Positions 31,200 to 60,888 of a DNA stretch of 64,000 nucleotides are shown here, piece after piece (position 1 is the stretch's first letter; each line of letters opens with the position of its first letter). Both the position numbers and the translations under genes were made by a program. Source of the DNA: an uncultured Hormoscilla sp. (GTDB lineage Bacteria > Cyanobacteriota > Cyanobacteriia > Cyanobacteriales > Desertifilaceae); NCBI GenBank assembly GCA_963921275.4, contig OZ001293.3:6528001-6592000 (forward strand), given 5' to 3'. The notes under the pieces are model-generated. The model saw only the letters and a list, made by a program, of their open reading frames with translations, ran no database searches and was not told where the DNA came from.

Positions 31200-31670
31200 T
31201 TAAGATATCACTTGAGCGACGATCTTGCCCCGGACGTGACGTTGAGACAGGCGTACCAGTGCATCAGGAATTTCTTCCATACTTATGAGTTCTTGCAGCA
31301 TCGGGTTAATTTTATTGTCACTGACTAGACTGCCAAGATCTCTGCCCATACAAGTCAGCAATAGCAATTTGGTCTCCAGACAAATAAGCACCTCCCAAAG
31401 CTACTTCATGAATGGAAATACCTTTGCTAAAAGGTTTAATCTTGCTAAAATTAGGTAATCCAGCAACGCAGGCAATTGCCCCGTTAAAAGCTACCATCTC
31501 TAACCCCGCCGTCGCACTATCAGAACTAACTGTATCGACGATCGCGTCCACCCCTCGCCCATCAGTAATCTGGAGCACTCTTGACAAATCTCTTCGGTGC
31601 GATAATCTACAACATGTGCTGCGCCTAACTGACGCACGTAATCAAAATTAGCCGCAGAACAGGTATAAAT
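31200..31670 (-). pseudogene. C-terminal half of an MDR/quinone oxidoreductase-family gene
   Basis: IYTCSAANFDYVRQLGAAHVVDY, GRGVDAIVDTV, RHVRGKIV; frameshifts; N-half at 58312-58603. Confidence 0.85.
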
Positions 31671-32597
31671 GGTCGGGGTCGAGCTGGGAATCACTCCCCA
31701 ACCCTCCAAGAGCGAAACCTGAAGAGCGACTGGAACCGCACACGGCTACTGGTTGGTAAGCTGTTGTCATCAGTAGGATTACTGGGGGTTACCCCCGTTG
31801 TCCCTTACCCTTTGAAATTTTACCCCTTATGGTCAATCCTATTGGACCGTTTAAGTACTGAGCTGCGGAAGGTTCGCGGAGGATAGTTCAGCAAACCATA
31901 CTCGCCGCTCTTTACTAACATCTTCCCCATTCTGCTTTCCGCTTTTCGTAAGGGCTCTGAACTTTACCTGGCTAAGATTTGAATCCAAAATTCGTACTTT
32001 CGGAATTTCTCCCTAGTTCTGTGACATTAAGGTTACTTTTCCCAAGGGTGTCTTACCATATCCGTCCTACGTCTGCATATCCACAGGCATTACCCTGGGC
32101 GTTAGCTTCTTAGGACATCCTTCTTCTTCGTGGCTTGCGCTTTACATCTAACTTGTCCAAATGGGGACAGCTCACGAGAGGTTACTTCGTTCCCTAGTAT
32201 CATTTCACGATGCTTTTAGGTTCCTACTATACCCCGGGAGTTCTTTGAGTACGTTATTAGCCAGAGGCAAGAGCTAATACTAACTACCATTTCCCTTTTT
32301 GGGCAAGCGCATAAGCCTTCTTCCGCTGGTTCTGGTTAACGAGGTTTACATAGGTTCGCTTGTTCTAACCATTAGCATCTTTCCTAGCGGCGTCACCGGC
32401 TTAGGCTGCCAGTTATCCTACATTTAAGTCCTCGGGAGGCACCACGGCGATGTGGCTCCGTAGCACCTCCGACCGGTAGTACCCTCGACCCCCGTACCTG
32501 GGGAAAGGGAATTTAACCCCCATGATAACCAGAGTTATCTGGCTGATAGAGCCAGACCCGACTTTCACCTACTGGCTTATGCCGGAACGAATCGCAC
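31671..32597 (-). mobile_element. ORF-less group II intron, copy B (927 nt)
   Basis: 5' GTGCGATTCG, 3' CTCGACCCCGACC, DV/DVI-like region; reverse complement of 58604-59530. Confidence 0.92.
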
Positions 32598-33180
32598 CAT
32601 CTCCCACCAGTCTATCGTTAGCGTCTGTTCCTTGACGAACATGTGCCAGGTATTTTAAATCTTCTTTGGTTGGCAAAATTGTTTCCAATAGGCTTTTGGG
32701 GACATCAATAACCGTCACTTTATCGTCATCGTGTTGTCCTGGTTCTAAGTTGAAGCTGGGAAACTTAGCCCCATAACTACTTGTATTTTTGAGTTGCCCG
32801 AGGGTAACAATCTGAGGCGTCGGCTTTTCGTCCTCGTCGAAGAGAAGCAAAGCCAACCAAGGAATGTCCCTGTCCTCGCTAGAACTGTCGATCGCTCTTT
32901 CCCAAGGTAAGGTACTGCGGTTGAAAATAACATGGGGAAAGACGTTAGAGTGTTCCCCCAAACTCCCTGGCGGTGGGAAAACCCCATGGATGTCTTGGGG
33001 ATTTAGAGCGAAACGTTCTCCGGCGACATGAAATGTTTTCTCTCCCGTTGTAAAGGGAGCTTGACCTTGTATCTTGCTACTTTCAATAGTTTGAGTAACG
33101 GTAATCTTATATTCCCCATCTCTCAGTGCCGGTTGATGGTACTGGATGAATTCAACCTTAATAGGAGCTTGAGTAGTCAT
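32598..33180 (-). pseudogene. N-terminal half of a large uncharacterised protein
   Basis: MTTQAPIKVEFIQYHQPALRDGEY..TLPWER..PWLALLLF..LAHVR; continues at 59531. Confidence 0.8.
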
Positions 33181-33268
33181 TGTAATTTTTGTCCTCGTTG
33201 CCAAAAAATTATCAAGCGATGCCCGAGGGGTTTTCGCCATGCGTCCCGAGGGCATCGTTGATTTTTGA

Positions 33269-34985
33269 TTATGCCTTTACTTGCGGGGCGACTAAAAAAT
33301 CAGCCGCTACCTCCCTATTCAGATCCACATCTTTGCTGGGTTCAAATCCTAAACTTTGCAATAAACTATCTCGACTGGAGTTCTGCACCAACGTATTGCG
33401 AATGCGATTTCTCAGTCCCTCCTCGTCGAGAGTGCTGGCTTGAAAAGGGGTTTGATTTTCCCAGCCATAACCAGTGGGAGCCGATTCCGGTTCGTATTGC
33501 AAATTGCGGCGGTTAACGGCATGAGTTTGACCCGGCGCTGGCGGTCTTCCGGGTTTTATTTCAAATCCCGATAGGGCATTTTCTATAAATTTCGTTCCGT
33601 TCAGATCGGGACTCAGGGATTTGCCCCACAGCCCTGCTGGCACCTTCTTCAAGATGGGGATATACTTAAAGTCGTCATCTTTAACAGGCGGCCCATCTTT
33701 TTTAGTTATCTTAATCCGGTGCTTGGTTGTTAAGTCTCCATCACTGACTTCCATTGAGCCAATGCCGAAGGCGGTGTTAGCTTGAACATGGCTGCCATCT
33801 GTCTTTGTTATCAAGATTGGGGATTCTCCAGTAGAGACTACCTTGTAAGCCTGTTTCGAGGGCACGATCGCATTCGTCACCAGGGATAAGTGCTTGGGAT
33901 TGATGACTCCCAGATCCGATTCGTTGTCGCCAATTTTCCGCACCAAGCCATCTTTAAAGGCAATAGTACATACCTTGTCGTCTTCCGGCAAGAAGGAATT
34001 TTTGAAGGTGCCCCAAGAAATTGGTTGGGGCTTTCGGGACGAACTGTCTCCGAAACTGACGTGAACTGAAACAATCCAGATATGGATGGTCGCCGTACCG
34101 CCAAATTCCGGTCCCCAGATATGTAGGTCTGCCCCCAACTCCACCGTAATGTGATGGGTGCCAAAGAAGTGAAAGGTGTAAGATGCGCCGATGTCGATAT
34201 AGATCCGGGCGTCGTAGTGATAGGGCTTCCAGGCAATTAAAAAGTCTGCCCCCACCTTGAACCATGCCTTGAGGGCACCGCTGTGATAGGTGGCGTCTAA
34301 ATGTCCTCCGGCCATGAAGGCATGAGAACATAGAGCAAAATAGGCATCTCCTTTGATGGTAATGTGACTGTCAACTCTCCAGTTAAATCCCAGCCTGGGA
34401 ACTTGGGGATAGTGGCTGGGTACCTGGAAACTGGGATGGTAGCCTCCCAGGGTGGTGACGAAATCTCCTCCGTGTTCTCCAGAGAACCAACAATAAAAGG
34501 CAAACCCTCCCGTGAGGTGACAGTTTCTCGACAAGAGATAGGAGGCGGAGGTCAGTTGGGCCCGCACTCCCAAAAAGCCTTCATCGGGAATAAAGCTGAC
34601 CTTCAAGACCATCTGGACTTCCGCGATAGGGGTAACGGTTTCTCCTTCCTCTGGCGTGGGCAAGATCGCCGTAGATAAACCGAGAATATCTAACTCAAAG
34701 CGGTTGCCGAAGGAAGCGGTCAGCAGGACGAAGGAGTCAACTAGCTTGAAGGAGTTGAACTTGATGCCGACGGCCAGGAAATATTCTCCCACTGCCGGAG
34801 AGATGTATTTGGCGATTTTGTCCAGTTCGGCAGCCAGGTTGCCAGTATCGCCCGTATTGTTGACTGCTTCTTCCACGAGGGGAAACTGAGCGACTTTCTC
34901 AATGGGCGGGACTCGCAAGTTGCGGTTGTAGCCGAAGCCCCCCGCCAAGCCGGTGATGAAGAAGAAGGAGGGGCCCTTCGGTGAT
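33269..34985 (-). pseudogene. 5'-truncated DUF6603-like large protein
   Basis: GPSFFITGLAGGFGYNR, TLGGYHP, VPRLGFNW; no natural start; family name from recall. Confidence 0.6.
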
Positions 34986-35007
34986 GCCCAAGATGAAAGT
35001 AAAATTT

Positions 35008-35433
35008 GGGTGTGGTCAAAACCCGTTGGTGAGGGATCCCCCCCAGCCCCCGGATCCCCCCTAACCCCCCGCTACATTGGGGGGGACCGCTTAAAAAAGG
35101 GGGACATTCACTCCCCCTCCCTTTCAGAAGCTATACTTTACTCACATATTTCTTAACATTCTGTGGCCACTATGGGGGGTGAAACCCTGATTACTTCGTA
35201 AGTCATTCTCAATAAATTCAATAATTTATCAAGAAAGAGGTCGGGATTTTTGTCAACCCCGTTGAGGATACTAAGTCTCAGAATCTTTGTACCATAAGGG
35301 TTTTAAGGTTGTCAAGAATTATGCGAGTAATGGTAAGCTTTCGGAAGGGGGCTGGGCGGGGATCCCAAGTGTGCAATTACCCACCCCTGGAGATAAAATT
35401 GCTCTAGTTTATCAACTACTTTTGACCACACCC
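35008..35433. mobile_element. MITE-like element with a nested inverted-repeat element at ~35128-35341
   Basis: 14-bp perfect TIR GGGTGTGGTCAAAA / TTTTGACCACACCC; no TSD. Confidence 0.65.
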
Positions 35434-35830
35434 GCTCGAAGGTGACATTACCAGACAGAGCGAGCCGCTAAGCAACTGGCGAAGCTAAAGCCTGAGCGGG
35501 TTCTGGTTTGAGTAGTTCTGTTAACAATGAGGCGGGCCGATCGCCATAGGGCCAGGCAAAGGCATGGCGGAAAGACGCTTCCTGACAGGCTTCCAACTGC
35601 TCGAAATCTATCACGTCCAGGGTTAATAGGTTTTCGTACTCAAAGGGCAAACGGACGTTGTGTAACCCGGCGTTATCGGTGCAAATGGCAATGTCTACGC
35701 CAGCGTCAAACAGCGATCGAAGACGATCTTGAGTTGATGCAAATCTTCGAGAGTGCCAGTTTTCAGGTAAGTGGTGGGACAGACTTCCAGACATTGACCC
35801 CGTCTAGCTACTTGAGTTAATAATTCTGGA

Positions 35831-37584
<1,754 letters not shown>

Positions 37585-38566
37585 TATCGCAGGGGAATTT
37601 GAATCCCGTGACCGATGCGCATATGTAATGGTAATAGTTCCCGATAGCAGCCATCGGCAGTCTCGTATATATGTCCGGTGGTGTTGAGACCGAGCGCTCG
37701 GGCATACTCGTACAACCGGACAAACTCATCCAGGCGATCGGCATAGCGAGCATCTCCGCCGGCCAGGTCGATGGCGCAGACATACCCTGGCTTTTGGGCC
37801 GCCAGATCCACGATCGCCCGGTTCACCTCATAAGGCAACCGGGAGTGCATGCAGAGAATTTGACTGGCGATCGTCGGACAATCTCTAACCTGAGTGGCAA
37901 TACCGACAATTTCCACTATCTCTGCCATTAAGTCCAGTCTCTGCTCGGTGCTTAAATGGGCAGACGTCCGCCAGTAGGGAGTGTAGCGCAGCTCCAAATA
38001 GGCCAAATTTTCAAAGACGTAGGCACCGCGTGTCGGCCGGTAGATAAAATACGGTAATGTTTCGGCAGTTTGAACGCTTTCTACTAGGGTATGCGGTTGC
38101 AGATACTCATCCAGGGTATTGCGAGGGCGGGTGTAAAATTCTTCGAATGCTGGATGTTCCGGGAACTGCTGGGCCAGAGGGGAACTGGCGCGATGAAAAT
38201 ATCGCGCGTTGGATGCGGGGGAACGACCGAAACCCCCCAGATGGCGGTGCGGTTCAGCATATAAAGCCATGACTAAATCCTCTCGAGTCGGGAGTCTCCA
38301 GGTTGGGACTGGGAACGGTGATGGGAAGGACGCTTCAGGGGAAGCGATGTTTAATCTAGGATGTCATTAATCTCCTCTGCTGTATCTTGATCGCCGATGC
38401 GGTTGCTGTCTCGGTAGAGGTTGCAGAAAAAGGGGAACTCATAATGTTATACTTTCGGAGATCCCACTCTGCCTCTTGTGGGTGAGAAAGGGGAGTGAGG
38501 CCAGGAGGCTTCGCCGGAGGTGACCAGGGAGAATGGTGTAAATGCTATTGAGATCATTGTTGTGTG

Positions 38567-39563
38567 GTGCGACTCGTTTCGGCCTAACCTGTACAAACAC
38601 GGAAAAGCCGAGCCAAAATTGGACTGAATGTTTAGAACCAAAACTAATCATAATCAGGCTCAATATGGTAACTCTGGTCATCATGGGGGTTAAATTCCCT
38701 CTCCCCAGGTGTGGGGGTGACACCGGTCCTTAGTGCTGCGGAGTGACATCACCGTGGTGCGGAGCAAGGACTTAAATGTAGGATAGCTGACAGCCCAAAG
38801 TCGGCAACTCCGCTAGGAAAGATGCTCATGGTTAGGAAAACGAATCTGTGAAAGCCTCGTTATGTGTAACCAGCGGAAGAAGGCTTACACGCTGGCCTAA
38901 AAAGGAAATGGTAGCTAGTATTGGCTGTTGCATATGGCCAACATCACACTCAAAGTAGCTCCCGGGGTAAAGCAGGGACCTAAAAACATCGTGAAATGAT
39001 ACCAGGGAACGAAGTAACTCCACGTGTGCTGTCCATAACTACTCGACTATCGACCGGTGGTCAGGAGATAGGGACCAGTTAGATGATAAGCGTAAGCCAT
39101 GTGGAGAGAGATGGCCCAAGAAGCAAAGGACAGGGGTAACTCCTTGTATAAGTGGTGCAGGAATGTACCGGCAGACGTGGGTCGGATATAGTTGGAAATC
39201 TTGGGTGGAAGTATCCCTAATACGTACCAAAAATCAGGAGAAATCCTAGATTGTAATATGGACTAAAACTCTAGCCGGGTAAAACTTGAAAAGTCCCCTA
39301 ATGACGAGACAGGGGCAATGTTAGCAAAGAGCGGTATAAGTGGTTTCCTGGATACCCCCCGCGAACCTTCCGGAGCTAGATACGAAACAGTCCTATCGAC
39401 TACCATAAAGGGGAAAAACTGCATAAGAAGAGGGACAAAGGGAGCAATCCCCAGTAATCCTGCCAATGACAAGGTCCAACTAACCAGTAGCCGTGTGCGA
39501 TGAAAACCGCATGCACGGTTCGAAAGGGAGGGTTGGGAAGCGATTCCCAGCTCGACCCCTAAT
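38567..39563 (+). mobile_element. ORF-less group II intron E (997 nt)
   Basis: GTGCGACTCG; DV AGCCGTGTGCGATGAAAACCGCATGCACGGTT; ends CGACCCCTAAT; empty site TGTGTG|TAGAGAT near 39730. Confidence 0.93.
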
Positions 39564-39789
39564 TAGAGATTTATATCATTTTTGTGGCGGCAGGTTTGAA
39601 CCTGCCGATTTTCCCAGAAAGTTGACGCAGGGGGGGCTCGGGGGCTATGATGGTAGGTTGTGTGGCTGGTGAGGCGAGTGACTCTTGGCTAGGGAGATTG
39701 GTGTAAATGCTATCGAGATCGTTGTTGTGTGTAGAGATTCACATTATTCTTGTGGCGGCAGATTTGAACCTGCCGATTTTCCCAGAAGG

Positions 39790-39818
39790 TTGACACAGGG
39801 GCGCTCGGGGGCTATGAT
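39790..39818 (+). promoter_or_regulatory. Sigma70-type promoter for purA; diverged duplicate at 39622-39651
   Basis: TTGACA-N17-TATGAT, 33 nt upstream of the TTG start. Confidence 0.75.
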
Positions 39819-39848
39819 GGTAGGTTGTGTGGCTGGTGAGGCGAGTGA

Positions 39849-41189
<1,341 letters not shown>

Positions 41190-41213
41190 GAGGTGAAAAG
41201 ATAGCAGCGGAAG

Positions 41214-41807
41214 ATGGAAATAAAAGTTGAATGTCAAAAACGAGAAGCGGGAAGCAAACCAAGGGCGATGCGTCGCGCTGGGTTAATTCCGGCTAATCTA
41301 TATGGTCACGATGGTGCGAAAGCTATTTCTCTAACTGTGCCAGGGAAAATGGTGGAACACTTGATGAAAGAAGCTACCGTTAACAATACTTTGATCGATC
41401 TAGAAATAACGGATATCCCCTGGAGGGGCAAGACATTACTGCGGGAAGTGCAAACTCATCCCTGGAAGGGCTTTCCATACCACCTCAGCTTTTTCTCGAT
41501 CGCATCTCAAGCGTCTATAAAGGTGGTGATGCCACTGAAATTTGTGGGAGAGGCGATCGGGGTGAAGGAAGAAGGGGGTATATTAGAAACGCGCTCGACG
41601 GAAATAGAGGTGGAGTGCGCTCCAGATAACATCCCAGAGGCGATCGAGGTGGATGTGTCCGAACTGCGGGTAGGAAAGGCTCTGCTAGTCAAGGAACTGG
41701 TGATGTCAGCAGGGGTGAGTGCTGTTAGCGAACCGGAACAAATTCTGGCAACGGTGCTGGCAAGCAGGTTGACCAAAACACAAAAAGATACAGAGGAAAA
41801 GAAATGA
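41214..41807 (+). CDS. rplY: 50S ribosomal protein L25/Ctc
   Basis: RRAGLIPANLYG, REVQTHPWK, GVKEEGG, IPEAIEVDVS. Confidence 0.95.
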   Translation: MEIKVECQKREAGSKPRAMRRAGLIPANLYGHDGAKAISLTVPGKMVEHLMKEATVNNTLIDLEITDIPWRGKTLLREVQTHPWKGFPYHLSFFSIASQASIKVVMPLKFVGEAIGVKEEGGILETRSTEIEVECAPDNIPEAIEVDVSELRVGKALLVKELVMSAGVSAVSEPEQILATVLASRLTKTQKDTEEKK

Positions 41808-41905
41808 TGGAGAATGGAGAATGTAAAATGGAGAATGTAAAATGGAAAATGGGGCAATTATCAATTAACAATTGCTCAAAATTCTCAATTAGCGGTAAAA
41901 AGTAA

Positions 41906-42919
41906 ATGACGGAAAGCAGTAAAGAGTCGGAAGCAGTGGATGTATTTGGAGTGGGCAACGCCCTGGTGGACATTCTGGCATTAGTGAAGGATGTAAGAAT
42001 TGTATCCCACGAGTTGAATCGCGGGGCGATGACTCTGGTGGACGCTCCCAAGCAGGGGGTACTTTTGCAGGACCTGGAAGGGACTGATCTGCAACTGCGC
42101 TCGGGTGGCTCGGCGGCGAATACGATGATTGCGATTGCCCAGAGTGGTGGTAGCGGTTTCTATTCGGGTAAGGTTTCCAGGGACAGCAACGGTGAATTAT
42201 ACCGTCAGGATATGCTCAAAGCAGGGATTCAGTTTGATGTAGCTCCAGCCGACAGCGGCCCGACAGGAACATGCGTGGTGCTGACGACTCCGGATGGGGA
42301 ACGCACGATGTGCACTAATCTGGGAGTTTCTATCACCTTGTCGGCTACGGATATCGATGTGGACAAGCTCAAAGGCTGCAAATATAGCTATGTGGAGGGC
42401 TATCTTTGGGATGGGCCAGCGCAGCGCCAAGCGAGTGTGGAGACGATGTCCCAGTCTCGGCGCCACGGAGTGCGGGTCGCCTATACTTTTTCAGATGCGT
42501 TGCTGGTCGAGCGCTTTGCTGATGATTTTCGCCAGATAGTACCAGAATACTGCGATGTGCTCTTCTGCAATGGGGATGAGGCGCGCCGTTTCTGCGAGGT
42601 CTTCTCTATAGAAGACTGCGCTGCTAAAATTGGTGAGTTGGTGGATCTGGCGTTTATTACCGATGGTGGGAAGGGCTGTCTGGTGGTAGAAAATAAACAG
42701 ATTAGTACCGTGCCAGGATTTCCAGCGCAGGCGATCGATACGGTGGGGGCTGGAGATGCTTTTGCTGGTGGAGTGCTGTTCGGACTCACCCACGGCTATA
42801 GTGCGATCAAATCAGCCCGCTGGGGAAACTATCTAGGTTCCCAGGTGGTGCAGCGGTACGGCCCCCGTCTGGAGGGCTCCCAGGCCAATAAGTTGGCGGA
42901 AATAATGGGTGGAAAATGA
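41906..42919 (+). CDS. PfkB-family (adenosine) kinase
   Basis: GNALVD, SGGSAANT, DTVGAGDAFAGG. Confidence 0.93.
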   Translation: MTESSKESEAVDVFGVGNALVDILALVKDVRIVSHELNRGAMTLVDAPKQGVLLQDLEGTDLQLRSGGSAANTMIAIAQSGGSGFYSGKVSRDSNGELYRQDMLKAGIQFDVAPADSGPTGTCVVLTTPDGERTMCTNLGVSITLSATDIDVDKLKGCKYSYVEGYLWDGPAQRQASVETMSQSRRHGVRVAYTFSDALLVERFADDFRQIVPEYCDVLFCNGDEARRFCEVFSIEDCAAKIGELVDLAFITDGGKGCLVVENKQISTVPGFPAQAIDTVGAGDAFAGGVLFGLTHGYSAIKSARWGNYLGSQVVQRYGPRLEGSQANKLAEIMGGK

Positions 42920-43230
42920 AGAAAGATAAATTGGCGGCAGGGAAAATAGGCTTATTTTTCCTGATCGGTTTTATACTGCTGCAATATCCCTCGAGCATGA
43001 GTATCAGTATGGCGCTCGTATCGACAATCGCTGCTCACTGGGTAATGCAAGCTTGGACAGATGAAACAACATCGTCGGAGTCAGTGGAGTTACCATTTAC
43101 TAAGACTAGCGAGCAAAATCCTTTTGACAAGAGCAAGGCTGGTGCGGAAGTCTGGAACAAGTCGGCACAAGCAGGCTCTTTATTTGGTGGCGCTCCTTAT
43201 CGTCTGAAGCTCTTCAAGAAGCAGCAATAG
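42916..43230 (+). CDS. Hypothetical membrane protein
   Basis: Overlaps the pfkB stop; hydrophobic N-terminus. Confidence 0.55.
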   Translation: MKKDKLAAGKIGLFFLIGFILLQYPSSMSISMALVSTIAAHWVMQAWTDETTSSESVELPFTKTSEQNPFDKSKAGAEVWNKSAQAGSLFGGAPYRLKLFKKQQ

Positions 43231-43338
43231 GAACTGTGATGTACATGGAAATTAAAATTTGTCAAGGCAAACCATTCCGATTTTTCCGGAACGGTAAAAA
43301 TCGGACTAGAACCCCCGCAGCAATCTCACCTATGATAG

Positions 43339-43570: not shown

Positions 43571-43755
43571 TTTGGGAGGGCTATGATTGCGTTTTTGGGA
43601 AATTGTCATTGCGAGGGGGGAACACCTAACCGTCATTAAAAAAGATTGCACAACTCTCTTCTCGGCTTGCTATAATAATTGACAACTAACAACTGACAAC
43701 TAACAACCTCCGGGCAGGCGATCCGCCCGCCTTACGCAACTAACCACTTGATATT

Positions 43756-50254: not shown

Positions 50255-50381
50255 GAATTAAAACGATTTTTCCGACTATCTTAAAGATAGGTTAATCATT
50301 CCACACTCAATCGGAACCTTAGATTAAACTATTAATTGTACTACCCCTCAACACAGTCAATGCTCAGCTAGAAGGTGCTCT

Positions 50382-50816
50382 ATGGCTCTTACTCCTACTA
50401 TATTTTGGTTACTGGCATTTATTGTCCTGTGCGTGATGGAAGTGGTCACCCCAACCGCCTTTGTGGAATTGATGATGGGACTCAGCGCTTTGATGGTGGC
50501 GGGAGTTGCGGTGATTTTTCCCCAACTGGCCGTTGGCCTGCAGATTGCCCTGTGGATGGGATTGTCACTTAGTCTGGTATTTGGCTCCCGTCGCTTCCTG
50601 CCCACCCGCAAAGTTTACGCCCTTGCCGACGCCACCGAGGCCGAAACCTTGACCGAGATCTTGCCCGGTCAGGCGGGCCGCGTCCTCTATGAAGGCAATT
50701 CCTGGCGAGCTAAGTGTGATGATAGCATCAGTGCGATCGCTTCCGACCAGAAGGTTTACGTCCTCCGCCGGGAAGGCAATACCCTGATTGTCATGCCCGA
50801 AAATCTCTGGCATTGA
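50382..50816 (+). CDS. NfeD-family membrane protein
   Basis: TM N-terminus, GRVLYEGNSWRA, REGNTLIV; upstream of an SPFH gene. Confidence 0.9.
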   Translation: MALTPTIFWLLAFIVLCVMEVVTPTAFVELMMGLSALMVAGVAVIFPQLAVGLQIALWMGLSLSLVFGSRRFLPTRKVYALADATEAETLTEILPGQAGRVLYEGNSWRAKCDDSISAIASDQKVYVLRREGNTLIVMPENLWH

Positions 50817-50850
50817 AAATTGAAAATTGAAAATTGAAAATTGAAAATTG
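50812..50850. repeat. Heptamer tandem repeat (ATTGAAA)x5+
   Basis: Direct reading; similar heptamer runs near 41806 and 43680. Confidence 0.9.
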
Positions 50851-51056
50851 GGAATATTCAGATAGGATCGCGAAAATTTTGAGTTTTGCCCAGATAACAG
50901 AATAAGGGCGATCGCCCAAAATAGGGCCAGTTCTCATTATACCAACTGATTGTCAAGTTTTGTAACTTTCAGTTGTGGATGGTAACAAAAGGCGGGGTGG
51001 GGCTTGAGGAATAAATAGAAGCAGATAAGAAATTAATCGAAAAGGAGATTCACGCT

Positions 51057-52064
51057 ATGCCACCAGAATTAATAGCACTGCTTGCGGCTCTCGGAGTGGG
51101 CGGGTATGTCTTAAAAAGCACTGTCAAGATTATCAATCAAGGGGACCAAGCTTTAGTGGAAGCCTTGGGGAAATACAACGGCAAAAAACTCGAACCGGGA
51201 CTTAATTTCCTGGTGCCAGTGTACCATAACGTGGTTTATCGAGATACCATCCGGGAAAAAGTTCTAGACGTGCCGCCCCAACAATGTATCACCCGCGACA
51301 ATGTCTCGATCAGCGTTGATGCGGTGGTCTACTGGCGGATTATGGACTTGGAGAAAGCCTACTACAAGGTGGAAAAACTCCGGGATGCGATGGTCAACTT
51401 GGTGCTGACTCAAATTCGGGCAGAAATGGGTAAACTGGAACTGGATCAAACCTTTACGGCCCGATCGGAAGTGAATGAAGTGCTGCTGCGGGAATTGGAT
51501 ATTGCTACTGATCCTTGGGGGGTGAAGGTGACGCGGGTGGAACTGCGGGACATCGTTCCTTCTAAAGCAGTGCAGGAGTCGATGGAATTGCAGATGTCAG
51601 CGGAACGGAAAAAACGGGCAGCAATTCTGACCTCGGAAGGGGAACGAGAAGCAGCAGTTAACAGTGCTAAAGGTAAAGCAGAGGCACAAGTTCTGGATGC
51701 GGAAGCACGTCAGAAAGCAGCAATTCTAGAGGCCGAGGCGCAACAGAAGGCAACGGTGCTCAAAGCACAAGCAGAACGTCAGCAGGCAGTCCTAAAGGCG
51801 GAAGGGACAGCGGAAGCGCTGAAAATTGTGGCTCAAACCCTTAAAGAAGACCCCAAGGCGAAGGAGTCGCTGCAATTTTTACTAGCGCAGAATTATCTGG
51901 AGATGGGGATGAAGATTGGCAGCAGCGACAGCAGTAAGGTGATGTTTATGGACCCCCGCAGCATTCCGGCTACCTTGGAAGGCATGCGATCGATCGTCGG
52001 AGAGGGCAGCAAATCTGGAGAAATTAGCGTTCCAGATTTTGCACCCGATCTGTTCAAGAGTTAA
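51057..52064 (+). CDS. SPFH/stomatin-family protein
   Basis: [32 protein letters not shown]. Confidence 0.95.
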
Positions 52065-52065
52065 G

Positions 52066-52473
52066 TTAATCGCCTCCTGCCAGCTGGCACTGGTTACAGA
52101 GTCCGAAAAACTCCAGGGTGTGATAGTAAACTTTGAAATTGTGAGATGCTTGTAACTCTGTTTCCAGCTGGTGGACGGGACATGAATCTAAGGGAATGGA
52201 TTCACCGCAGTGCAGACAGGTGATATGATGCTGGTCTTGATGGACCGAGCCATAAAGGGATTCGCCGTTAGCCAAAGTCCGCACTTGTAGGCAGCCTTCT
52301 TGTTTGAGAGCTTCCAGGGCGCGGTAAACTGTTGCTAAACCGATGTTCTGGTTGCGGTTCCGCAGTTCGACGTAAATGTCTTGGGCAGAGAGTGATCGCT
52401 GGTTTGTTTGCAGCAGTTGCAAAATCCGCTCTTGACCCCGGGTGCGTTTGGCTTTCATCGACCTGTCTGGCAA
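52066..52473 (-). CDS. Fur-family regulator (Zur-like)
   Basis: GLATVYRAL, HHITCLHCG, FFGLCNQC. Confidence 0.92.
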   Translation of the reverse strand: MPDRSMKAKRTRGQERILQLLQTNQRSLSAQDIYVELRNRNQNIGLATVYRALEALKQEGCLQVRTLANGESLYGSVHQDQHHITCLHCGESIPLDSCPVHQLETELQASHNFKVYYHTLEFFGLCNQCQLAGGD

Positions 52474-52485
52474 ATCCTAATGCGA

Positions 52486-53292
52486 TCATACATCGGGATC
52501 GATCCCTAACTCTTGTAACCGGGCAGCTAAACTTTCGGCCCGAGCGCGTTCCTGTTGGGCCCGAGCGCGTTCCTGTTGGGCCCGAGCGCGTTCCTGTTGG
52601 GCCCGAGCGCGTTCCTGTTGGGCTTGTGTAAGGGCTGCTTCTTCTGGTAGCGGGACAAGGTTGCTTTCGCGGTCATAAAAGCGCAACCATATTGCAGGCT
52701 CTCGCAGTATTATTCCAGACCAGGTTCCCAGCCACAACCCTAATGTCTCAGACCACAGCCAACCCCGTGCATCTGGGATCAAGGGCTGATATCGTCCATA
52801 ATCATCCAAATGCCACCCCTGTAAGGAATTGGGGTTAAAGGGGTCGAACACGAAGTAATCTGAGGTTCTCCATTGTTGCTCGTAAATATCCTTTTTAATT
52901 CCAGTATCTATGTGGGCCGTCGTTGGCGACATCAGTTCTATAATCACATCAGGCAAACGACCCCCTTCTTCCCAGGCTACCCAGGCTTTTCTGGATTTAT
53001 TAGTATCTACACCGAGCACGACAAAGAAATCTGGACCTCGGAAGTCTTCGTTGCGGATCTGACGGTTACTGTCATATATGAACATATTGCCGCCGACGAA
53101 GAAGTCATTGCGGTGAGCCCAAGCTTCATGCACTGACCGGATCAGAACGTTCATGGCAGTGCGGTGACGGTTAGTTTCCAATGGTTCTCCATCGTCAAAT
53201 ATCAGATCGCTAGTCGATAGGGGTACTTCCTCCCAGTCCGATGCCACTGCGAGGGTCTGGGATAATTTCTCTTGTTTTGTCTCCACTGACAT
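52486..53292 (-). CDS. Uma2-family endonuclease with QQERARA x4 tail
   Basis: FRGPDFFVV, PDVIIELMS, WLRFYD; 21-bp repeat at ~52537-52620. Confidence 0.9.
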   Translation of the reverse strand: MSVETKQEKLSQTLAVASDWEEVPLSTSDLIFDDGEPLETNRHRTAMNVLIRSVHEAWAHRNDFFVGGNMFIYDSNRQIRNEDFRGPDFFVVLGVDTNKSRKAWVAWEEGGRLPDVIIELMSPTTAHIDTGIKKDIYEQQWRTSDYFVFDPFNPNSLQGWHLDDYGRYQPLIPDARGWLWSETLGLWLGTWSGIILREPAIWLRFYDRESNLVPLPEEAALTQAQQERARAQQERARAQQERARAQQERARAESLAARLQELGIDPDV

Positions 53293-53418
53293 GGCATCAT
53301 CTCCCTAGTAGGGGTTATTCCCTCCTTAATTTGGTAATTCGTCAGACTTGTGTCTTGCCATAATATATGATATCATCAAACCGATAATCTGACAAGGAAT
53401 TGCTGACAAGGAATTGCT

Positions 53419-53700
53419 GTGACTGTAAAATATCACGCTCGGATCTATGTTACTATGCGACCTTCAGTGTTAGACCCGGCTGGGGTGGCCGTGTCCTCTG
53501 GGTTGAAGCAACTGGGCTATGATGGCGTCGAACAGGTGCGCATTGGTAAGTTTATCTCACTACAGTTGACTGCTGCCGATGAAGAGTCCGCTAAGGTACA
53601 GCTCTCTGAGATGTGCGATCGCCTCTTAGCAAACCCAGTAATTGAAGATTACTGCTTTGAGATGACCGAGTTATCCGCTACTGCTCATATGGCTGGATGA
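53419..53700 (+). CDS. purS: FGAM synthase subunit PurS
   Basis: RPSVLDPAG, VRIGK, LLANPVIE. Confidence 0.95.
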   Translation: MTVKYHARIYVTMRPSVLDPAGVAVSSGLKQLGYDGVEQVRIGKFISLQLTAADEESAKVQLSEMCDRLLANPVIEDYCFEMTELSATAHMAG

Positions 53701-53736
53701 TTTGTTTATTTTAACAAAAAATACTAACCTTAGGCT

Positions 53737-54462
53737 ATGAAATTTGGGATAGTGGTGTTTCCAGGGTCAAATTGCGATTGCGACGTCGAATACGTTACCC
53801 GCGACTTACTCAAGCAACCAACTCGCATGGTTTGGCATCAAGAAACGGATATTTCCGATCTCGATGTGGTAGTTATCCCTGGCGGTTTTAGCTATGGAGA
53901 TTATTTGCGCTGCGGCGCGATCGCCCGTTTCTCCTCGGTGATGGCCAAGGTTGTGGCACATGCAGAGCAAGGTAAACTGGTATTAGGCATCTGTAACGGC
54001 TTCCAGATCTTAACAGAAGTGGGATTGTTGCCCGGGGCTCTGGTCAGAAATCAGGACTTGCATTTTATCTGCGATCGGGTGTCTATGCGGGTCGAAAATA
54101 GCCACATTTCTTGGACTGGGGCCTACTCAGAAGGGGAAGTTATTACTTTACCCATTGCCCACGGCGAAGGTAGATACTATGCTGATGATGAGACGATCGC
54201 ATCATTAGAAAAAAACTCACAAGTGCTATTTCGCTACGAGGGAGAAAATCCCAATGGTTCCTTGAATAACATTGCTGGTATTTGTAACCAACAAGGGAAT
54301 GTTTTAGGAATGATGCCCCATCCAGAAAGAGCATCAGACCCCATGTTAGGCGCTACGGATGGGATAAAATTGTTTAAGGGATTGCTCAGTCGCGAACTAA
54401 TACAGAACTTAAACAGCAACTGTAGGTTGGGTGGTTGCAATACTTCTCGGTTAAGGATATAG
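53737..54462 (+). CDS. purQ: FGAM synthase glutaminase subunit
   Basis: FPGSNC, GGFSYGDYLR, GICNGFQ, MPHPER. Confidence 0.97.
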   Translation: MKFGIVVFPGSNCDCDVEYVTRDLLKQPTRMVWHQETDISDLDVVVIPGGFSYGDYLRCGAIARFSSVMAKVVAHAEQGKLVLGICNGFQILTEVGLLPGALVRNQDLHFICDRVSMRVENSHISWTGAYSEGEVITLPIAHGEGRYYADDETIASLEKNSQVLFRYEGENPNGSLNNIAGICNQQGNVLGMMPHPERASDPMLGATDGIKLFKGLLSRELIQNLNSNCRLGGCNTSRLRI

Positions 54463-54831
54463 GTTGTCATTGCGAGGGGGGAACACAGTACGTAGCGATT
54501 AACTTTTGCTTTATGAGTTAACCCCCCCCGAAGCAATCTCCTCGACGACCCATGAGATTGCTAGCCCTCCGGAGCTTGTTGCGAGGCACGAAGCAATCTA
54601 CCGCTGTGCTAAGGGGGGGATCCTGGTGGCGATCCCTAAATTATCGGTTTGGGTTTCCTCCCTCGCTCCGGACAAATTATTAACCGAGAAGTATTGTGGG
54701 TGGTTGGGTTTCGTGCCTCTACCCAACCTACGATGTTAATATCAATTGACGAGGAAGGTAAGCACTAAAGTGCTTACTACGAACGAGGAAGGTAAGCACT
54801 AAAGTGCTTACTACGAACGAGGAACGAACAA

Positions 54832-56922
54832 TTAAGAGTGAGGTTCGCCAAAGAGCACCATTGAGCAGGTGATTTCCTTAATTACTTGAACAGTTACGTC
54901 ACTAACGGCTAATCCCCCGGCAGTACGATAGCGTAGAGAACGCAAAATTACCATTTCAGAGGATTGAGAGAACTTGATAATTACCTGGGCCACATCGTCG
55001 TGGCGAACAATTTTAATTTGAGACTTAACCTGGGGCATGGCCTGAGAGAGGATTGCTTCTAACTGCGGCTTAAAGGCAAGGGTTTCCTCTTTGGGCGTGC
55101 GCCGATCGCACACGTGCAAAAATGTTATTTCCGCCTGGTTCGTATCGGCGAACAGTTGAGCAAACCGCACCGTTCGCACTGCCTGTGGGGTTAAGTTTTT
55201 GACAGGCACCAATATTTGATGGATATTTATCGGCTCGTCCAGCAGCCGCATCACGGCTACCGGACAGTGGGACGCGGAGAAGACACTATCAATCAGATTG
55301 CCTAGCAAGCGAGTCCGCAAGCCAAAGGTTTCGCCAGATCCCATGACAATTAAATTGGCATTTACTTCTCTGGCCGTGCGACAAATTCCTTGAGCTACAT
55401 TATGATCGATGCGAATTTTCGGGGACGCTTTGACCTTAAACTCTTGACTGACTGCGACTGCCCGATCAAGCAGCTTATTACTTTGCTTGATTGCCCCGCG
55501 CAACTTGGGGTCGTCCATGTGGAAGTGAGCTTTAGCAATAGATAGGGGTACGATCGCACCAGACTCGTGAAGAGCCAACAGGGCTGCCATCTCGATTAAA
55601 TACCTTTCTGTCAAGGGATTGTAGACTGGCACCACGACAGTAAACGGCTGTTCGGACTGGTCGGATGGTTTACTTTCCCACCAGATCGACCTGTTGCTAG
55701 TCTCGAGATCGGTTTCTTCTGAACTGTCACCAACAGGGTTTGGTAGGGGCAACCTACTGGCAAATTGTGCTGTAGTTACAGGACCCAGGATAGAAGTCAC
55801 CAGCATCAGGACAATGACAGCGTTAAACACTGGTTCGCTAATCAACCCGACCCGGAAAGCTGCTAAGGCCGCTGCTAAAGTAGCTGCTACCTGGGGCAAG
55901 GATAAGGACCACATGGTCAGCATCTCGTTCCAGCTGTAGCGAAACAGCAGCTTGGACACCAGGGCCGCCAGAAATTTACTTGCCAGCAACCCACCGACGA
56001 TCGCCAGGGTGAGGGGCAGACCGGAAGTGATGCTTTCCAGAAATGTCGGGATATCCAGCAGTAAACCCATACCTACGAAGAAGAAAGGGATAAACAGGGT
56101 ACTACCCACGAATTCCACTTTTTCTTCTACCGGACCATGACCGACCACGTCATTGACTGCTAGACCAGCTAGGAATGCGCCGACAATCTTATCTACATTA
56201 ATGATCTGTGCTCCCACTGAGGCCAGAAACACCGACAACAGCACGAACAAAAACTGGTTGCTTTCCTCATCCCCAGTGCGGCGGAAATATTCTTTCCCCG
56301 CCCAGCCAAGGCCAAACAAGACGATGGTCGAGTAGATAGCCAGGGCCCCTAACTGGATCGCTAGACTGGCGGGGGAGAACTCCCCTGCATGAATGGAAAC
56401 ACAAATCGCTAGTACCAGCAGGGCGGCGATATCTGTGAAAATGGTGGCTCCGATGGTGACGTTGACGGCTTCGTTGGCGGCCACGCCCAACCTAGTGACG
56501 ATCGGGTAACCTAAGAGGGTATGGGAAGCGATCAGGGAACCAATCAGGATCGAAGAATTCAAACCGAAGCCGAACATCTGCCCCACTACGGTGCCAAAAA
56601 TTAGGGGGATTAAGAACGTAGCAAGACCGAAGCCTAGGGAGCGATTTTTCTTTTTGCGGAACTCCTCCAGGTCAATTTCCAAGCCTGCGACGAACATCAG
56701 ATAAATCTTGCCTGCGTCCGATAGCAGCTTCATCATCTCTGATTTAGGTTCGAGAAACCCCAGGCCATCGGGACCGAGGACCACCCCTGCTACTAGCAGT
56801 CCCACTAATCCGGGCAGTCGCAGCTTCTCGAAGATCGGAGGTATGGTCAAGGTGACCAGCAGCAGGATGGTAAAGGCAACGATCGGGGTATCTGGGAGTA
56901 ATGCTAGTATCTGTTCCATCAA
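54832..56922 (-). CDS. Cation/H+ antiporter with C-terminal USP-like domains
   Basis: Multi-TM, FVAGLEID, GATIFTD, SHCPVAV. Confidence 0.92.
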   Translation of the reverse strand: MMEQILALLPDTPIVAFTILLLVTLTIPPIFEKLRLPGLVGLLVAGVVLGPDGLGFLEPKSEMMKLLSDAGKIYLMFVAGLEIDLEEFRKKKNRSLGFGLATFLIPLIFGTVVGQMFGFGLNSSILIGSLIASHTLLGYPIVTRLGVAANEAVNVTIGATIFTDIAALLVLAICVSIHAGEFSPASLAIQLGALAIYSTIVLFGLGWAGKEYFRRTGDEESNQFLFVLLSVFLASVGAQIINVDKIVGAFLAGLAVNDVVGHGPVEEKVEFVGSTLFIPFFFVGMGLLLDIPTFLESITSGLPLTLAIVGGLLASKFLAALVSKLLFRYSWNEMLTMWSLSLPQVAATLAAALAAFRVGLISEPVFNAVIVLMLVTSILGPVTTAQFASRLPLPNPVGDSSEETDLETSNRSIWWESKPSDQSEQPFTVVVPVYNPLTERYLIEMAALLALHESGAIVPLSIAKAHFHMDDPKLRGAIKQSNKLLDRAVAVSQEFKVKASPKIRIDHNVAQGICRTAREVNANLIVMGSGETFGLRTRLLGNLIDSVFSASHCPVAVMRLLDEPINIHQILVPVKNLTPQAVRTVRFAQLFADTNQAEITFLHVCDRRTPKEETLAFKPQLEAILSQAMPQVKSQIKIVRHDDVAQVIIKFSQSSEMVILRSLRYRTAGGLAVSDVTVQVIKEITCSMVLFGEPHS

Positions 56923-57029
56923 GGGTGAAAGGGCTAAGAATGCTTATCTGATGAACAGCTTAACGTCTTTAACTGACCCTTGCTGTGCTGAGTACCTCAA
57001 ATTATCAAACAAATCTTAAATCGAACCTA

Positions 57030-57141
57030 TAGCGAACCTAAATCATTTGTGTAAAAATTATGTGTGTATCAATGCTGAAACCTTTGCCTGGTAATGATTT
57101 AAGCAAAAACATCCTATTGCACAAGTCATTTATGCTTGCTA
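57030..57141. mobile_element. 112-bp TA-flanked MITE
   Basis: Imperfect TIR TAGCGAACCTAAATCATTTGTG / CACAAGTCATTTATGCTTGCTA. Confidence 0.65.
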
Positions 57142-57145
57142 TATA

Positions 57146-58157
57146 ACTCAAGTTGCGACCTATAAAAATTGGATACAAAAAGCTATGATAAAGAGAATTA
57201 TTTTCAACTCTAATCCCTTAGATGTAACAGCATGAATTGACTTGGGAAACAAATTTGTGATTCGACTAAAACAGGTTTCAACTTGTTTTCTTGTTACTTT
57301 TTGTATATATTCAAAACAAGAATATTCTTTTCTTTTTGAGTTCTTTTTTCGCAAAGGTTTTAACATTATACTTGACGACTCTTTTAGTAAATCCTCTAAT
57401 TGATAATCATTATAAGCTTTATCTCCATAAACTATTGAATTTGATGGTAAGTCAAAGCCAAAAGATTGCAAAACTTTAACATCATTATAACTACCAGGAT
57501 CTAGATAAAATTCTATTGGCTTTCCATTTTTGTTTACCAACATATGAACTCTTAATCCATAAAAATAACGTTTTTTACTGGCAATATACCCTCGATATTC
57601 TTCCTTGTTATAAATTTGGCATCTATCAATCCTAATATTATCACATACTGGCACCGGGAAACTATTAAGAATATATTCTTGACCCGGATTGAGCTCTTTA
57701 AATGTTTGAGCTATAACTTGGAAGAAAAACATCCAAATTGGTTCGTCAATATTGTGTAATCGACGATTGAACCTACTTTTACTTAACAGATTTTTTATAT
57801 ACTTGTGTTCGACCATAAATTGACAAGAGCGATCGTGGTGTTCTCCGAAAAAATATGCAGCAACTAATCCGACTGTCATCACTTCGGCATTGTTCATTTT
57901 TACTTGTGGATCTTCTTTTATATTTAACGCTTTTAGTAGCTCGTCACAAAGAACAAAAATTGTTGTAATCATATCTTCCATCATCTACATCCCCCAGCAA
58001 TTAACTATTATTTTAGTACATTATAACCTATAAACAGCCAACCCGCTGTATAGCACAAAAAAAATATAATTTTGTATCAAAAGCTACGAAATATCCCAAA
58101 TATCTGTAAAGTCTAAGTGGGTAATTCATATTTTTTTTAATAGGTCGCAACTTAGGT
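57146..58157 (-). mobile_element. IS982-family element, copy 2
   Basis: Same TIRs and length as copy 1; flanked by TATATA. Confidence 0.92.
57160..57984 (-). CDS. IS982 transposase with D-to-N at the first predicted catalytic Asp
   Basis: YILNSFP versus YILDSFP in copy 1. Confidence 0.85.
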   Translation of the reverse strand: MMEDMITTIFVLCDELLKALNIKEDPQVKMNNAEVMTVGLVAAYFFGEHHDRSCQFMVEHKYIKNLLSKSRFNRRLHNIDEPIWMFFFQVIAQTFKELNPGQEYILNSFPVPVCDNIRIDRCQIYNKEEYRGYIASKKRYFYGLRVHMLVNKNGKPIEFYLDPGSYNDVKVLQSFGFDLPSNSIVYGDKAYNDYQLEDLLKESSSIMLKPLRKKNSKRKEYSCFEYIQKVTRKQVETCFSRITNLFPKSIHAVTSKGLELKIILFIIAFCIQFL

Positions 58158-58311
58158 TATATAAGTAATTCTGGTCAGGGGATAAGTGAAGTCAGGCGAT
58201 CAATAGTTTGGGAGTTGATGTTATAGGAATGATTGCCTTCAATCTAGGGTTTTGTATAATTAGGAATTGTGTTGTGGTAGCCCGGAACTGAAATTAGAAG
58301 GAGAAGAACAG

Positions 58312-58603
58312 ATGAAAGCTTTGGTGCTCGATCGACCTGGAAGTCCGCAAACCTTGCGCTTGGCCCAAATGCCTGTGCCAGAAGCAGGGGCGGGAGAAGT
58401 ACGGGTGCAGGTGCATGCTGTAGGATTGAATCCAGTCGATTATAAGCTAGCAGCATCGGGTTCAGCCCGCTGGCAGTATCCGTTCATTCTGGGACTAGAT
58501 GTGGCAGGAGTTGTGAATGCTGTAGGTGCAGATGTCACCAAGGGGTGCTGGCGGTGTCGGCGGCTTTGCGGTTCAGCTAGCGTCACCGACTGGTTTAGAG
58601 GTG
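58312..58603 (+). pseudogene. N-terminal half of the MDR/quinone oxidoreductase gene, internally deleted
   Basis: MKALVL..GLNPVD..LGLDVAG jumps to GAGGVGGFAVQLA..GLEV in another frame. Confidence 0.88.
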
Positions 58604-59530
58604 GTGCGATTCGTTCCGGCATAAGCCAGTAGGTGAAAGTCGGGTCTGGCTCTATCAGCCAGATAACTCTGGTTATCATGGGGGTTAAATTCCCTTTCCC
58701 CAGGTACGGGGGTCGAGGGTACTACCGGTCGGAGGTGCTACGGAGCCACATCGCCGTGGTGCCTCCCGAGGACTTAAATGTAGGATAACTGGCAGCCTAA
58801 GCCGGTGACGCCGCTAGGAAAGATGCTAATGGTTAGAACAAGCGAACCTATGTAAACCTCGTTAACCAGAACCAGCGGAAGAAGGCTTATGCGCTTGCCC
58901 AAAAAGGGAAATGGTAGTTAGTATTAGCTCTTGCCTCTGGCTAATAACGTACTCAAAGAACTCCCGGGGTATAGTAGGAACCTAAAAGCATCGTGAAATG
59001 ATACTAGGGAACGAAGTAACCTCTCGTGAGCTGTCCCCATTTGGACAAGTTAGATGTAAAGCGCAAGCCACGAAGAAGAAGGATGTCCTAAGAAGCTAAC
59101 GCCCAGGGTAATGCCTGTGGATATGCAGACGTAGGACGGATATGGTAAGACACCCTTGGGAAAAGTAACCTTAATGTCACAGAACTAGGGAGAAATTCCG
59201 AAAGTACGAATTTTGGATTCAAATCTTAGCCAGGTAAAGTTCAGAGCCCTTACGAAAAGCGGAAAGCAGAATGGGGAAGATGTTAGTAAAGAGCGGCGAG
59301 TATGGTTTGCTGAACTATCCTCCGCGAACCTTCCGCAGCTCAGTACTTAAACGGTCCAATAGGATTGACCATAAGGGGTAAAATTTCAAAGGGTAAGGGA
59401 CAACGGGGGTAACCCCCAGTAATCCTACTGATGACAACAGCTTACCAACCAGTAGCCGTGTGCGGTTCCAGTCGCTCTTCAGGTTTCGCTCTTGGAGGGT
59501 TGGGGAGTGATTCCCAGCTCGACCCCGACC
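58604..59530 (+). mobile_element. ORF-less group II intron, copy A (927 nt)
   Basis: GTGCGATTCG..CTCGACCCCGACC; EBS1 TGCCTC (58932) vs GAGGTG; EBS2 AACCAG (58864) vs CTGGTT. Confidence 0.92.
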
Positions 59531-60888
59531 AGTTAGCCGTGGTAATCGGCAACCGACTGCCCCAACTAACGGGAACGAGTACGGTGCATTTGGTTTCCCT
59601 AGAAGGGCGTTATAATGCCAGCGGTTTTGACTTCCAAGGAGCGGGAAGTAGCGATTCGATCCGCTTGGTTTCCCTGAAAAGCTGGAATTTTGCTTGCGTT
59701 AATCCACAACATACGTTTAAGGAAATTCTGAAACATCTCGACCAAAATCCCAGCACCTTGAGGTTGCCAAGCAGCACCAATAATCAAGTCGAGAGTTATT
59801 ATCAAATGGGTTACATCCCGCTTCCCCATTACTTGCGCCAGGGAGGCAAAACAATTTCCTGGTATCGCGGTCCTCTAAGCACTGGGCAAGACCAGACAGG
59901 AATAACCCTACCCGTTCGCGGTGCAGACCAATTAGTGCGCTACAACCCAGATAATGGAATGTTCGACGTATCCTACGCGGCGGCCTGGGAGTTGGGACGG
60001 TTGCTAGCCTTGCAAAATAAGGGATTTTCCGTCAGCTTATACCGCTGGAAGCGCAGCCACGCCCAACAACAGAAAATTGCCGAGAACCAACTGATTCATG
60101 CTCCCGGTTACTTACCCGTAACCAGTCAGTCAGCAAATTCTCTATCTATTCCCAGGGATATATCCACTTGGTTCCGAGACCTCAGCTTGCTAAAAGGCGT
60201 ACCCTTCGGCTACCTCGTTCCCGAGGAGAAGATGCTACCGATAGAATCAATTCGCTTTTTCTGGGTCGATCGCCTTTGGGTAGAGTGCTTGCTAGATGGT
60301 GCCTTTAGCATCGGTCGCGTGACGACCTCAGACCATCAACGAGATAGCCAGCATCCTACCAGTCCAGCAGAGAATCCACATCAAACGGTTACGGGTTTTT
60401 ACTGCGATCGGAGGTAGTTTCGGGATGGCCTGGTTTGCAGGTTGATGGATATAATGGGAGCGGTCAAAGCCGTCAACAACTCACCCTGCTGCGGATGGAT
60501 CGCTTATCGGCCAACGTATTAATCTGCTTGTTCGCGGGATAAATTACAGAGGTTGAGATTCATCAAAAGCCGGAAACAATCCACTTCGGCCTCGATCGTG
60601 ACAACAGCAACCCACCAGTCTTTTCTAAAGAGCTAAGGGACAGCGACGGCAGGCTTCACAGTGAATGGGTAGTGCGATCGATCCCCTGGAAGAACGATGA
60701 CGCGACAGCCAGGACGGTCGATATGCACGAATTCGCGCGATCGATCTACGATGCGCTACCGACTCAAGAGCAACGAACACTTGTATCTCCCAGCCCCAAG
60801 GAGTTCGAGTCATTTGTCTCCGCACACTTTGCTTTGGAGGCTATTGAAGGAGTCCAGGATGGTTAAGTTTAGAAAAGAGGGAAGCTAG
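59531..60888 (+). pseudogene. C-terminal half of the protein begun at 33180
   Basis: LAVVIGNRLP..HLVSLEG..WYRGPL..YAAAWELGRLLAL..ESIRFF; frameshift near 60400 and a TAA near 60540. Confidence 0.8.

Follow-up and report, generated by a model that had tools for sequence, protein, structure and literature searches.

Exchange of exons between group II introns has been proposed in the cyanobacterium Thermosynechococcus elongatus, in which the 5′ exon of one of the introns TeI4f and TeI4g and the 3′ exon of the other are the halves of one pseudogene, and homologous recombination was inferred (Mohr, Ghanem and Lambowitz 2010, PMC2882425). The TeI3 introns of the same species lack an open reading frame (ORF), belong to class IIB and are mobilised in trans (PMC2882425). 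More generally, recombination between inverted homologous copies of a mobile element is a standard cause of inversion of the DNA between them (PMC3004938). Here we report on a window of 64,000 nucleotides (nt) in the genome of an uncultured Hormoscilla sp. (G000:C1:6528001-6592000; genome 7.03 Mb, main contig C1 6.88 Mb; all positions without a contig name are those of the window), in which two identical ORF-less introns of group II type, copies A and B, bound a segment (32598-58603) that is inverted in this assembly relative to related genomes.

As in T. elongatus, the host is a cyanobacterium with ORF-less introns, and an exon swap between introns splits pseudogenes (PMC2882425). The introns TeI4f and TeI4g carry ORFs, and one split gene is described for them (PMC2882425), whereas the present locus has two identical introns without an ORF, both reciprocal junctions of which can be read; here the old order is known from relatives and domain V is mispaired. 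In contrast to the inversions described for mobile elements (PMC3004938), the repeat is a group II intron inserted without target duplication, so that the swap is visible as an exact exchange of exons. The mechanism is thus already in print (PMC2882425), to which the present case contributes the second of the reciprocal junctions along with the first, the gene order in outgroups and a view of the whole genome. No further direct case of an intron-mediated exon swap was found in the literature searched, subscription papers being outside the search. Leclercq et al. reportedly studied the group II introns of Wolbachia in 2010.

Exon exchange and gene order at the inverted segment

The two copies agree at 927 of 927 positions in opposite orientation, at the coordinates given by the original prediction, which had also assigned the flanks correctly: one copy lies between the N-terminal half of a Zn-dependent oxidoreductase and the C-terminal half of an unrelated hypothetical protein (gene X), the other between the two remaining halves (Table 1). 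Comparison of the cross-joined halves with single homologues, which had been proposed as a check, gave base-exact joins for both genes. Gene X has an intact, intron-free orthologue of 633 amino acids (aa) with 81% identity in the congener G004, where the N-flank stops at base 2400 and the C-flank begins at base 2399 of the locus (minus strand), with neither gap nor overlap. For the oxidoreductase, the N-flank stops at 2007 and the C-flank begins at 2008 in the intact homologues of both G054 and G050 (327 and 331 aa, respectively). These reciprocal joins show that the 5′ and 3′ exons next to each intron copy come from two different insertion sites. A diverged gene X seen in run X6 of a separate study likewise runs across the junction without an intron.

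Both split genes are pseudogenes in either orientation, and flipping the segment back restores neither. The predicted in-frame junction GLEV-IYTCS holds locally, but GLEV itself is out of frame with the start of the oxidoreductase, since a deletion near 58540 has removed about 215 nt and shifted the frame. Together with two additional frameshifts in the C-terminal half, the rejoined ORF comprises 104 aa in comparison to 327-331 aa in the homologues, and the rejoined gene X, with a 1-nt deletion near 60396, is open for 489 of 633 aa. In the present order, removal of copy A gives a chimeric frame of 201 aa that stops 7 codons beyond the junction, and removal of copy B leaves 392 aa open from the ATG of the oxidoreductase, composed of its residues 1-76, 21 out-of-frame residues and gene X from residue ~195. 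Since the latter frame depends on the frameshifting deletion, we read it as chance. Searches of gene X against Pfam, NCBIfam and the named Atlas clusters yielded no match to indicate its function.

The synteny with relatives that the original prediction had suggested to examine proved informative at both breakpoints, since at least one old adjacency is kept in all four congeners and the old order is seen on either side; the arrangement in G000 is therefore derived. In G004, psb27, the C-terminal and N-terminal parts of gene X and the DUF6603 gene are contiguous and free of an intron. Beyond the end of nhaP, the Na/H antiporter gene (window 57031), the sequences of G002, G003 and G004 continue within ~80-120 bases at window 31147 read leftwards, which corresponds to a PIN gene lying directly after nhaP in these three genomes. 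In G001, psb27 (61112) adjoins purA (39786) in the pre-inversion orientation. The possibility that G001 shares the present orientation was ruled out by full alignment, which gave the old psb27-purA order and a different rearrangement. G002-G004 have neither the oxidoreductase nor the neighbouring element of the insertion sequence (IS) family IS982 at the corresponding place, and the closest match to the oxidoreductase reaches 44-45% in each congener, so that this gene is, on sequence comparison, probably a lineage-specific arrival.

The inverted segment contains the N-terminal half of gene X, a C-terminal DUF6603 fragment, a broken add gene, purA, rplY, pfkB, ftrV, fur, purS, purQ, the Na/H antiporter gene, IS982 and the N-terminal half of the oxidoreductase. 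The gene content named in the original prediction (purA, rplY, purSQ and ftrV) is in accordance with this, with purA, rplY, purQ and purS passing NCBIfam equivalog cut-offs and ftrV identified by Pfam FeThRed_A. As the breakpoints lie inside pseudogenes, purA, rplY, purS, purQ and ftrV relocate as whole units, and for the same reasons the inversion is predicted to be close to neutral, with little effect on the cell.

Two other observations concern the same region. The DUF6603 gene at 33269-34976 (-) comprises the C-terminal 559 aa of a protein that has 1202 aa in G004, which marks a separate, older breakpoint near 34976. An inverted pair of IS982 copies (15473-16491 and 57144-58162, 99.4% identical) was considered as the source of a second inversion and rejected, each copy retaining its own target duplication.

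Table 1. Positions of the intron copies, their parts and the surrounding features in the window.
Feature	Position	Strand	Remarks
Copy A, 927-nt ORF-less group II-type intron	31671..32597	-	5′ GUGCG, 3′ ...GACC; longest ORF 36-38 aa
Copy B, identical to copy A	58604..59530	+	0 mismatches to copy A
Exon-binding site 1 (EBS1, UGCCUC), loop of a predicted hairpin	58932..58937; ~32264-32269 in copy A	+	complementarity to 13 target sites
Exon-binding site 2 (EBS2, AACCAG)	58864..58869	+	complementarity only
Domain V: AGC triad retained, middle helix mispaired, GNRA loop gone	59454..59487; 31714-31747 in copy A	+	
3′ end with the domain VI hairpin and its unpaired A	59494..59530	+	RNA fold
Zn-dependent (MDR) oxidoreductase, N-terminal half, 5′ exon of copy B	58312..58603	+	Pfam ADH_N, E=2e-11; frameshifting internal deletion near 58540
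Oxidoreductase, C-terminal half, 3′ exon of copy A	31200..31670	-	two frameshifts
Gene X, N-terminal half, 5′ exon of copy A	32598..33180	-	hypothetical protein, 633 aa in G004
Gene X, C-terminal half, 3′ exon of copy B	59531..60870	+	1-nt deletion near 60396
Inverted segment	32598..58603		26,006 bp
Bystander copy of IS982 with own target duplication, upstream of the oxidoreductase	57144..58162	-	82 full copies in the genome

The intron family, its targets and its domain V

Copies A and B belong to a family with 16 full-length copies in the genome at ≥96% identity, which are found at 13 distinct 5′ exon sequences. Six of the copies are identical and spread over the chromosome, and 12 show 0-3 differences to the consensus. 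The claim of the original prediction that both 5′ exons fit the same EBS1 and EBS2 is borne out, with 11 of 12 pairs for copy B and 9 of 12 for copy A, and it extends to the whole family: 13 of the 13 distinct targets score 8.5-11 of 12, as compared to a random mean of 4.0 (P(random≥8.5)=0.003). This fit between EBS and intron-binding sites (IBS) at all 13 targets is a retrohoming signature. One copy of the family is a mosaic of two subfamilies, which indicates that its copies do recombine.

Several further features bear on the class of the element, which was compared with IIB-like group II introns. It starts with 5′ GTGCG, in agreement with the GUGYG consensus, its insertion is precise and without target duplication, as given by the exact joins in the homologues, and the RNA fold contains a domain VI hairpin with a bulged A. 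Neighbouring introns at 35831-37584, one of them Rfam-positive, are ~81-82% identical to it. Judged from this similarity and from the pairing to its targets, the element is a descendant of group II introns and was targeted in the way of such an intron. The designation as an ORF-less group II intron consequently stands with regard to descent and to the lack of any ORF beyond 36-38 aa, but not with regard to a canonical domain V or to a 3′ AY end, because the exact joins place the end at ...GACC (15 of 16 copies end in ACCCCGACC). As in the case of TeI3-type introns mobilised in trans, the element has no reverse transcriptase (RT) ORF and RT-bearing introns are present in the same genome, in which 93 RVT_1 matches and ~50 full-length RT cores (53 core hits, with a few double counts) were counted; these RTs could act in trans.

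A canonical domain V has an AGC triad, a paired helix, a 2-nt bulge and a GNRA loop; in both copies the triad is retained, and the middle helix and GNRA loop are lost. Its fold is no better than that of shuffled sequences (z=+0.19 vs -3.56 for the neighbour at 37040-37126) and a search against Rfam gave no match at E≤5. The unitig over 31698-31845, which holds domain V, has ~14x the single-copy depth and contains no differences, so that the unusual domain V is not a polishing artefact. The same mispairing block is found 49 times in G000 in several domain V backgrounds; G004 has it three times and G003 once, and a search of 58 other genomes gave no instance. The share of introns that lie in intact sense ORFs does not differ between mispaired domain V (5 of 20, one of the five being the copy B chimera) and canonical domain V (39 of 123), so that no avoidance of such ORFs is seen, which is not decisive. 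Degenerated group II ribozymes of organelles also have a mispaired domain V; they are presumed to have lost self-splicing and many are described as immobile (review PMC4424553). Unlike these, the present family is found in a bacterium, where 12 near-identical copies occupy different sites matched by the EBS. That the RNA works as a tolerated variant, that it receives help in trans, or that the block spread by gene conversion after insertion are all possible, and the route by which a family with mispaired domain V came to 13 matched target sequences is the question with more potential.

With regard to the origin of the altered letters, blocks CGCTCTT, TCCAG and GGACAAGCCCCAG replace canonical letters of domain V and the 3′ linker in several unrelated intron families genome-wide, and CGCTCTT is the reverse complement of the intron's own stretch at 59289-59295. 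Over-represented oligomers were considered as a source, and none of CGCTCTT, CTCCAG and TTCCAG stands out. This genome strongly avoids palindromes such as CGTACG and TTCGAA, which occur in canonical domain V regions. The word GCGATCG is strongly over-represented and, together with psb27 and ftrV, marks the genome as that of a cyanobacterium. Template switching or restriction-site avoidance are ideas for what lies behind the block changes.

Some other members and neighbours of the family were recorded as well. Four copies (G000:C1 529246, 1181511, 3483535 and 4567748) occupy one site of a repeated element that has a 319-codon frame once the intron is removed; three of these belong to an older 96.4% subfamily and one is of the young type. 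The copies at G000:C1 2762286, 2764251 and 5268738 have 5′ exons similar to one short motif that is repeated (CCAGAGACTG...); it may be a palindromic repeat dispersed in the genome and serving as target. In the window itself, a twintron at 35831-37584 (+), with an 835-nt ORF-less intron (~36289-37123) nested in another, lies antisense within the adenosine deaminase gene, the rejoined frame of which is broken too (stop at codon 273). Another ORF-less group II intron, which is 997 nt long, has a canonical domain V and belongs to a set of 8 copies, is located at 38567-39563 (+).

Origin of the inverted order

The history proposed in the original prediction, namely two independent insertions followed by recombination, is supported by the base-exact exon swap, the gene order of the congeners, the EBS/IBS fit and an intact recA, which is open for 381 aa. 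Inverted homologous repeats at both breakpoints, a reciprocal exchange of flanks and the old order in relatives are the marks of ectopic inversion, and all of them are present. The mosaic copy of the family, two further inversions bounded by inverted RT introns of 99.4-99.7% identity and the precedent in T. elongatus (PMC2882425) also speak for this history. We therefore consider it probable that two retrohoming insertions were followed by a single homologous crossover within the 927-nt repeat, which flipped the segment. Copies A and B would have been inserted separately at EBS-matched sites by reverse splicing with an RT presumably borrowed in trans. One RecA-type crossover between the inverted copies, with RecA as the likely recombinase, would then have flipped the 26,006 bp, and the inverted arrangement may have survived by drift, since both breakpoints are in genes that are broken in either orientation. 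In principle, a perfect inverted repeat of 927 bp would allow the segment to flip back at a low, unregulated rate, so that the continued invertibility considered in the original prediction is physically possible.

Several observations weigh against this history. Reverse splicing catalysed by the intron itself is difficult to reconcile with the mispaired domain V. Copies A and B are free of lesions, of which the host genes have several, so either the genes decayed first, which is probable, or the copies were homogenised. In addition, no read or contig spans either copy, the unitigs break within the repeat, and the four exon-intron junctions are identical in both orientations, with the consequence that it is the assembly by itself that sets the orientation. 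The unitigs of X1 contain all four junctions without differences, those of X3 the two of copy A and those of X2 the two of copy B. Joints 58162-58600/58604 were considered as well; they have unknown letters between them and were read as other IS-to-intron unitigs.

An assembly artefact or a minority haplotype, in which the assembler crossed at the 927-nt repeat and most cells have the old order, would fit the lack of a spanning read and the fact that the N-terminal half of the oxidoreductase offers only ~440 unique bases between the 82-copy IS982 and copy B. Against this stands a single contig of 6.88 Mb that passes through ~390 intron ends, which would imply long reads, as well as an indirect control in which 339 paired introns were placed by their flanks on 2.6 Mb of relative sequence, 81 of them with a mapped 5′ exon. 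Where both flanks were single-copy and the partner base-exact, 19 of 20 introns had their own exons adjacent, as simple insertions, and the remaining one was the swap of copies A and B; for six of the 19 there is an identical twin at another place, and one of the six is identical to A and B. Most control introns with a single mapped flank proved to be locally colinear or gave no information. This assembly thus does not commonly have misjoins at identical copies, and we regard misassembly as unlikely. A history in one step, in which the inserting RNA or complementary DNA intermediate of the second copy recombined with the donor copy 26 kb away and thereby inverted the segment, would account for the identity and the proximity of A and B, and another intron-bounded inversion is short as well (35.5 kb). 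However, six identical copies are spread across the chromosome, so that the identity of A and B does not mark them as donor and daughter, and a third event spans 1.9 Mb; a one-step origin appears fairly unlikely.

A selected, reversible switch, in which the intron pair toggles or creates products such as a 392-codon oxidoreductase-X chimera formed by predicted splicing of copy B, might be suggested by the open frame left by copy B removal and by a sigma-70-like site at 58233-58260, the latter not being above chance (3 sites vs 1.5±1.4 in shuffled sequences). The frame match, however, needs the frameshifting deletion, includes the 21 out-of-frame residues and is met in phase by chance in one of three cases; the other chimera stops shortly past its junction, and domain V is mispaired. 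A programmed inversion should also yield a functional product in at least one orientation, whereas the present order gives the 392-aa and 201-aa chimeras and the old order no intact gene (489 of 633 aa and 104 of 327-331 aa). A Pfam scan of 42 window proteins, a subset of the window ORFs, gave neither an integrase nor a resolvase or an invertase. We found no sign of a programmed or regulated switch, and selection for one is extremely improbable. It is likewise very unlikely that exon shuffling of the eukaryotic type, by intron recombination, put the start of the oxidoreductase in frame with gene X and that the mispaired family splices and retrohomes by means of an intact domain V supplied in trans by hundreds of intact intron RNAs of the cell. 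If true, splicing of copy B would produce the 392-aa chimera in one orientation only, and the system would provide a natural model for how labour was divided in a proto-spliceosome.

Intron load and rearrangement of the chromosome

A search with our own pattern for group II ends yielded 390 ends of domain V and VI (DV-DVI) and 367 5′ ends, all on C1, of which a handful are likely false. Arthrospira platensis, with 101 group II introns, has the highest count given in PMC8919778. Both are cyanobacteria with many group II introns; unlike A. platensis (PMC8919778), the present genome has ~390 DV-DVI ends of one mostly ORF-less lineage together with ~50 full-length RT cores, a comparison in which the counting methods differ. 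A report of hundreds of group II introns in a cyanobacterial genome was not found in the literature searched, which did not include subscription papers.

The contribution of the introns to rearrangement was assessed in a partial comparison with 2.56 Mb of relative sequence, which gave 149 abutting pairs of unique alignments. Of one relative, 2.4 of about 6.4 Mb were covered. In 126 of the pairs the order is colinear and G000 has an insertion, and 22 pairs are discordant. Among the latter, inverted intron pairs form the boundaries in three cases, an IS pair in one case and a short repeat in another. As the case of copies A and B lay in a deliberately fetched region, the unbiased count of intron-bounded pairs is 2 of 21 (vs G002). 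In the second intron-bounded inversion (35.5 kb, C1:402444/437962), the RT introns are 99.7% identical and both sides are consistent. The third candidate is formed by inverted RT introns with 99.4% identity located 1.9 Mb apart (G000:C1 836971-839390(-) and 2732012-2734433(+)); in G002 the 5′ exon of the one intron is continuous with the 3′ exon of its partner, with one junction testable and not fully base-exact. From this alignment, the pair likely represents a third intron-mediated inversion. The partial comparison suggests that introns explain a minority of the clean breakpoints.

Synteny block ends coincide with intron ends in 5 of 204 cases, which is above random positions (0.5%) and not above inner alignment ends (25 of 942), and no enrichment is claimed. 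The five comprise one true swap, two simple insertions, one locally colinear case and one (C1:3729599) without assignment. A swap candidate at C1:2741627 proved to be false, caused by a small repeat, and 13 other candidates were dropped because of multi-copy flanks. An IS pair of 905 bp with 99.2% identity (G000:C1 463383-464286 and 4652218-4653122) lies at a clean breakpoint versus G002 and represents an IS-mediated rearrangement.

Introns do rearrange this chromosome. The inversion between copies A and B is one of at least three of its kind, in a genome whose intron count is roughly 4x the highest published count that we found (101, PMC8919778). Group II introns are seen here as substrates of recombination in an unusually clean form, in that either junction can be resolved to the single base. 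Destabilisation of a bacterial chromosome by an intron swarm is a premise of models of early eukaryotic intron invasion, and this genome is a place where such destabilisation can be measured.

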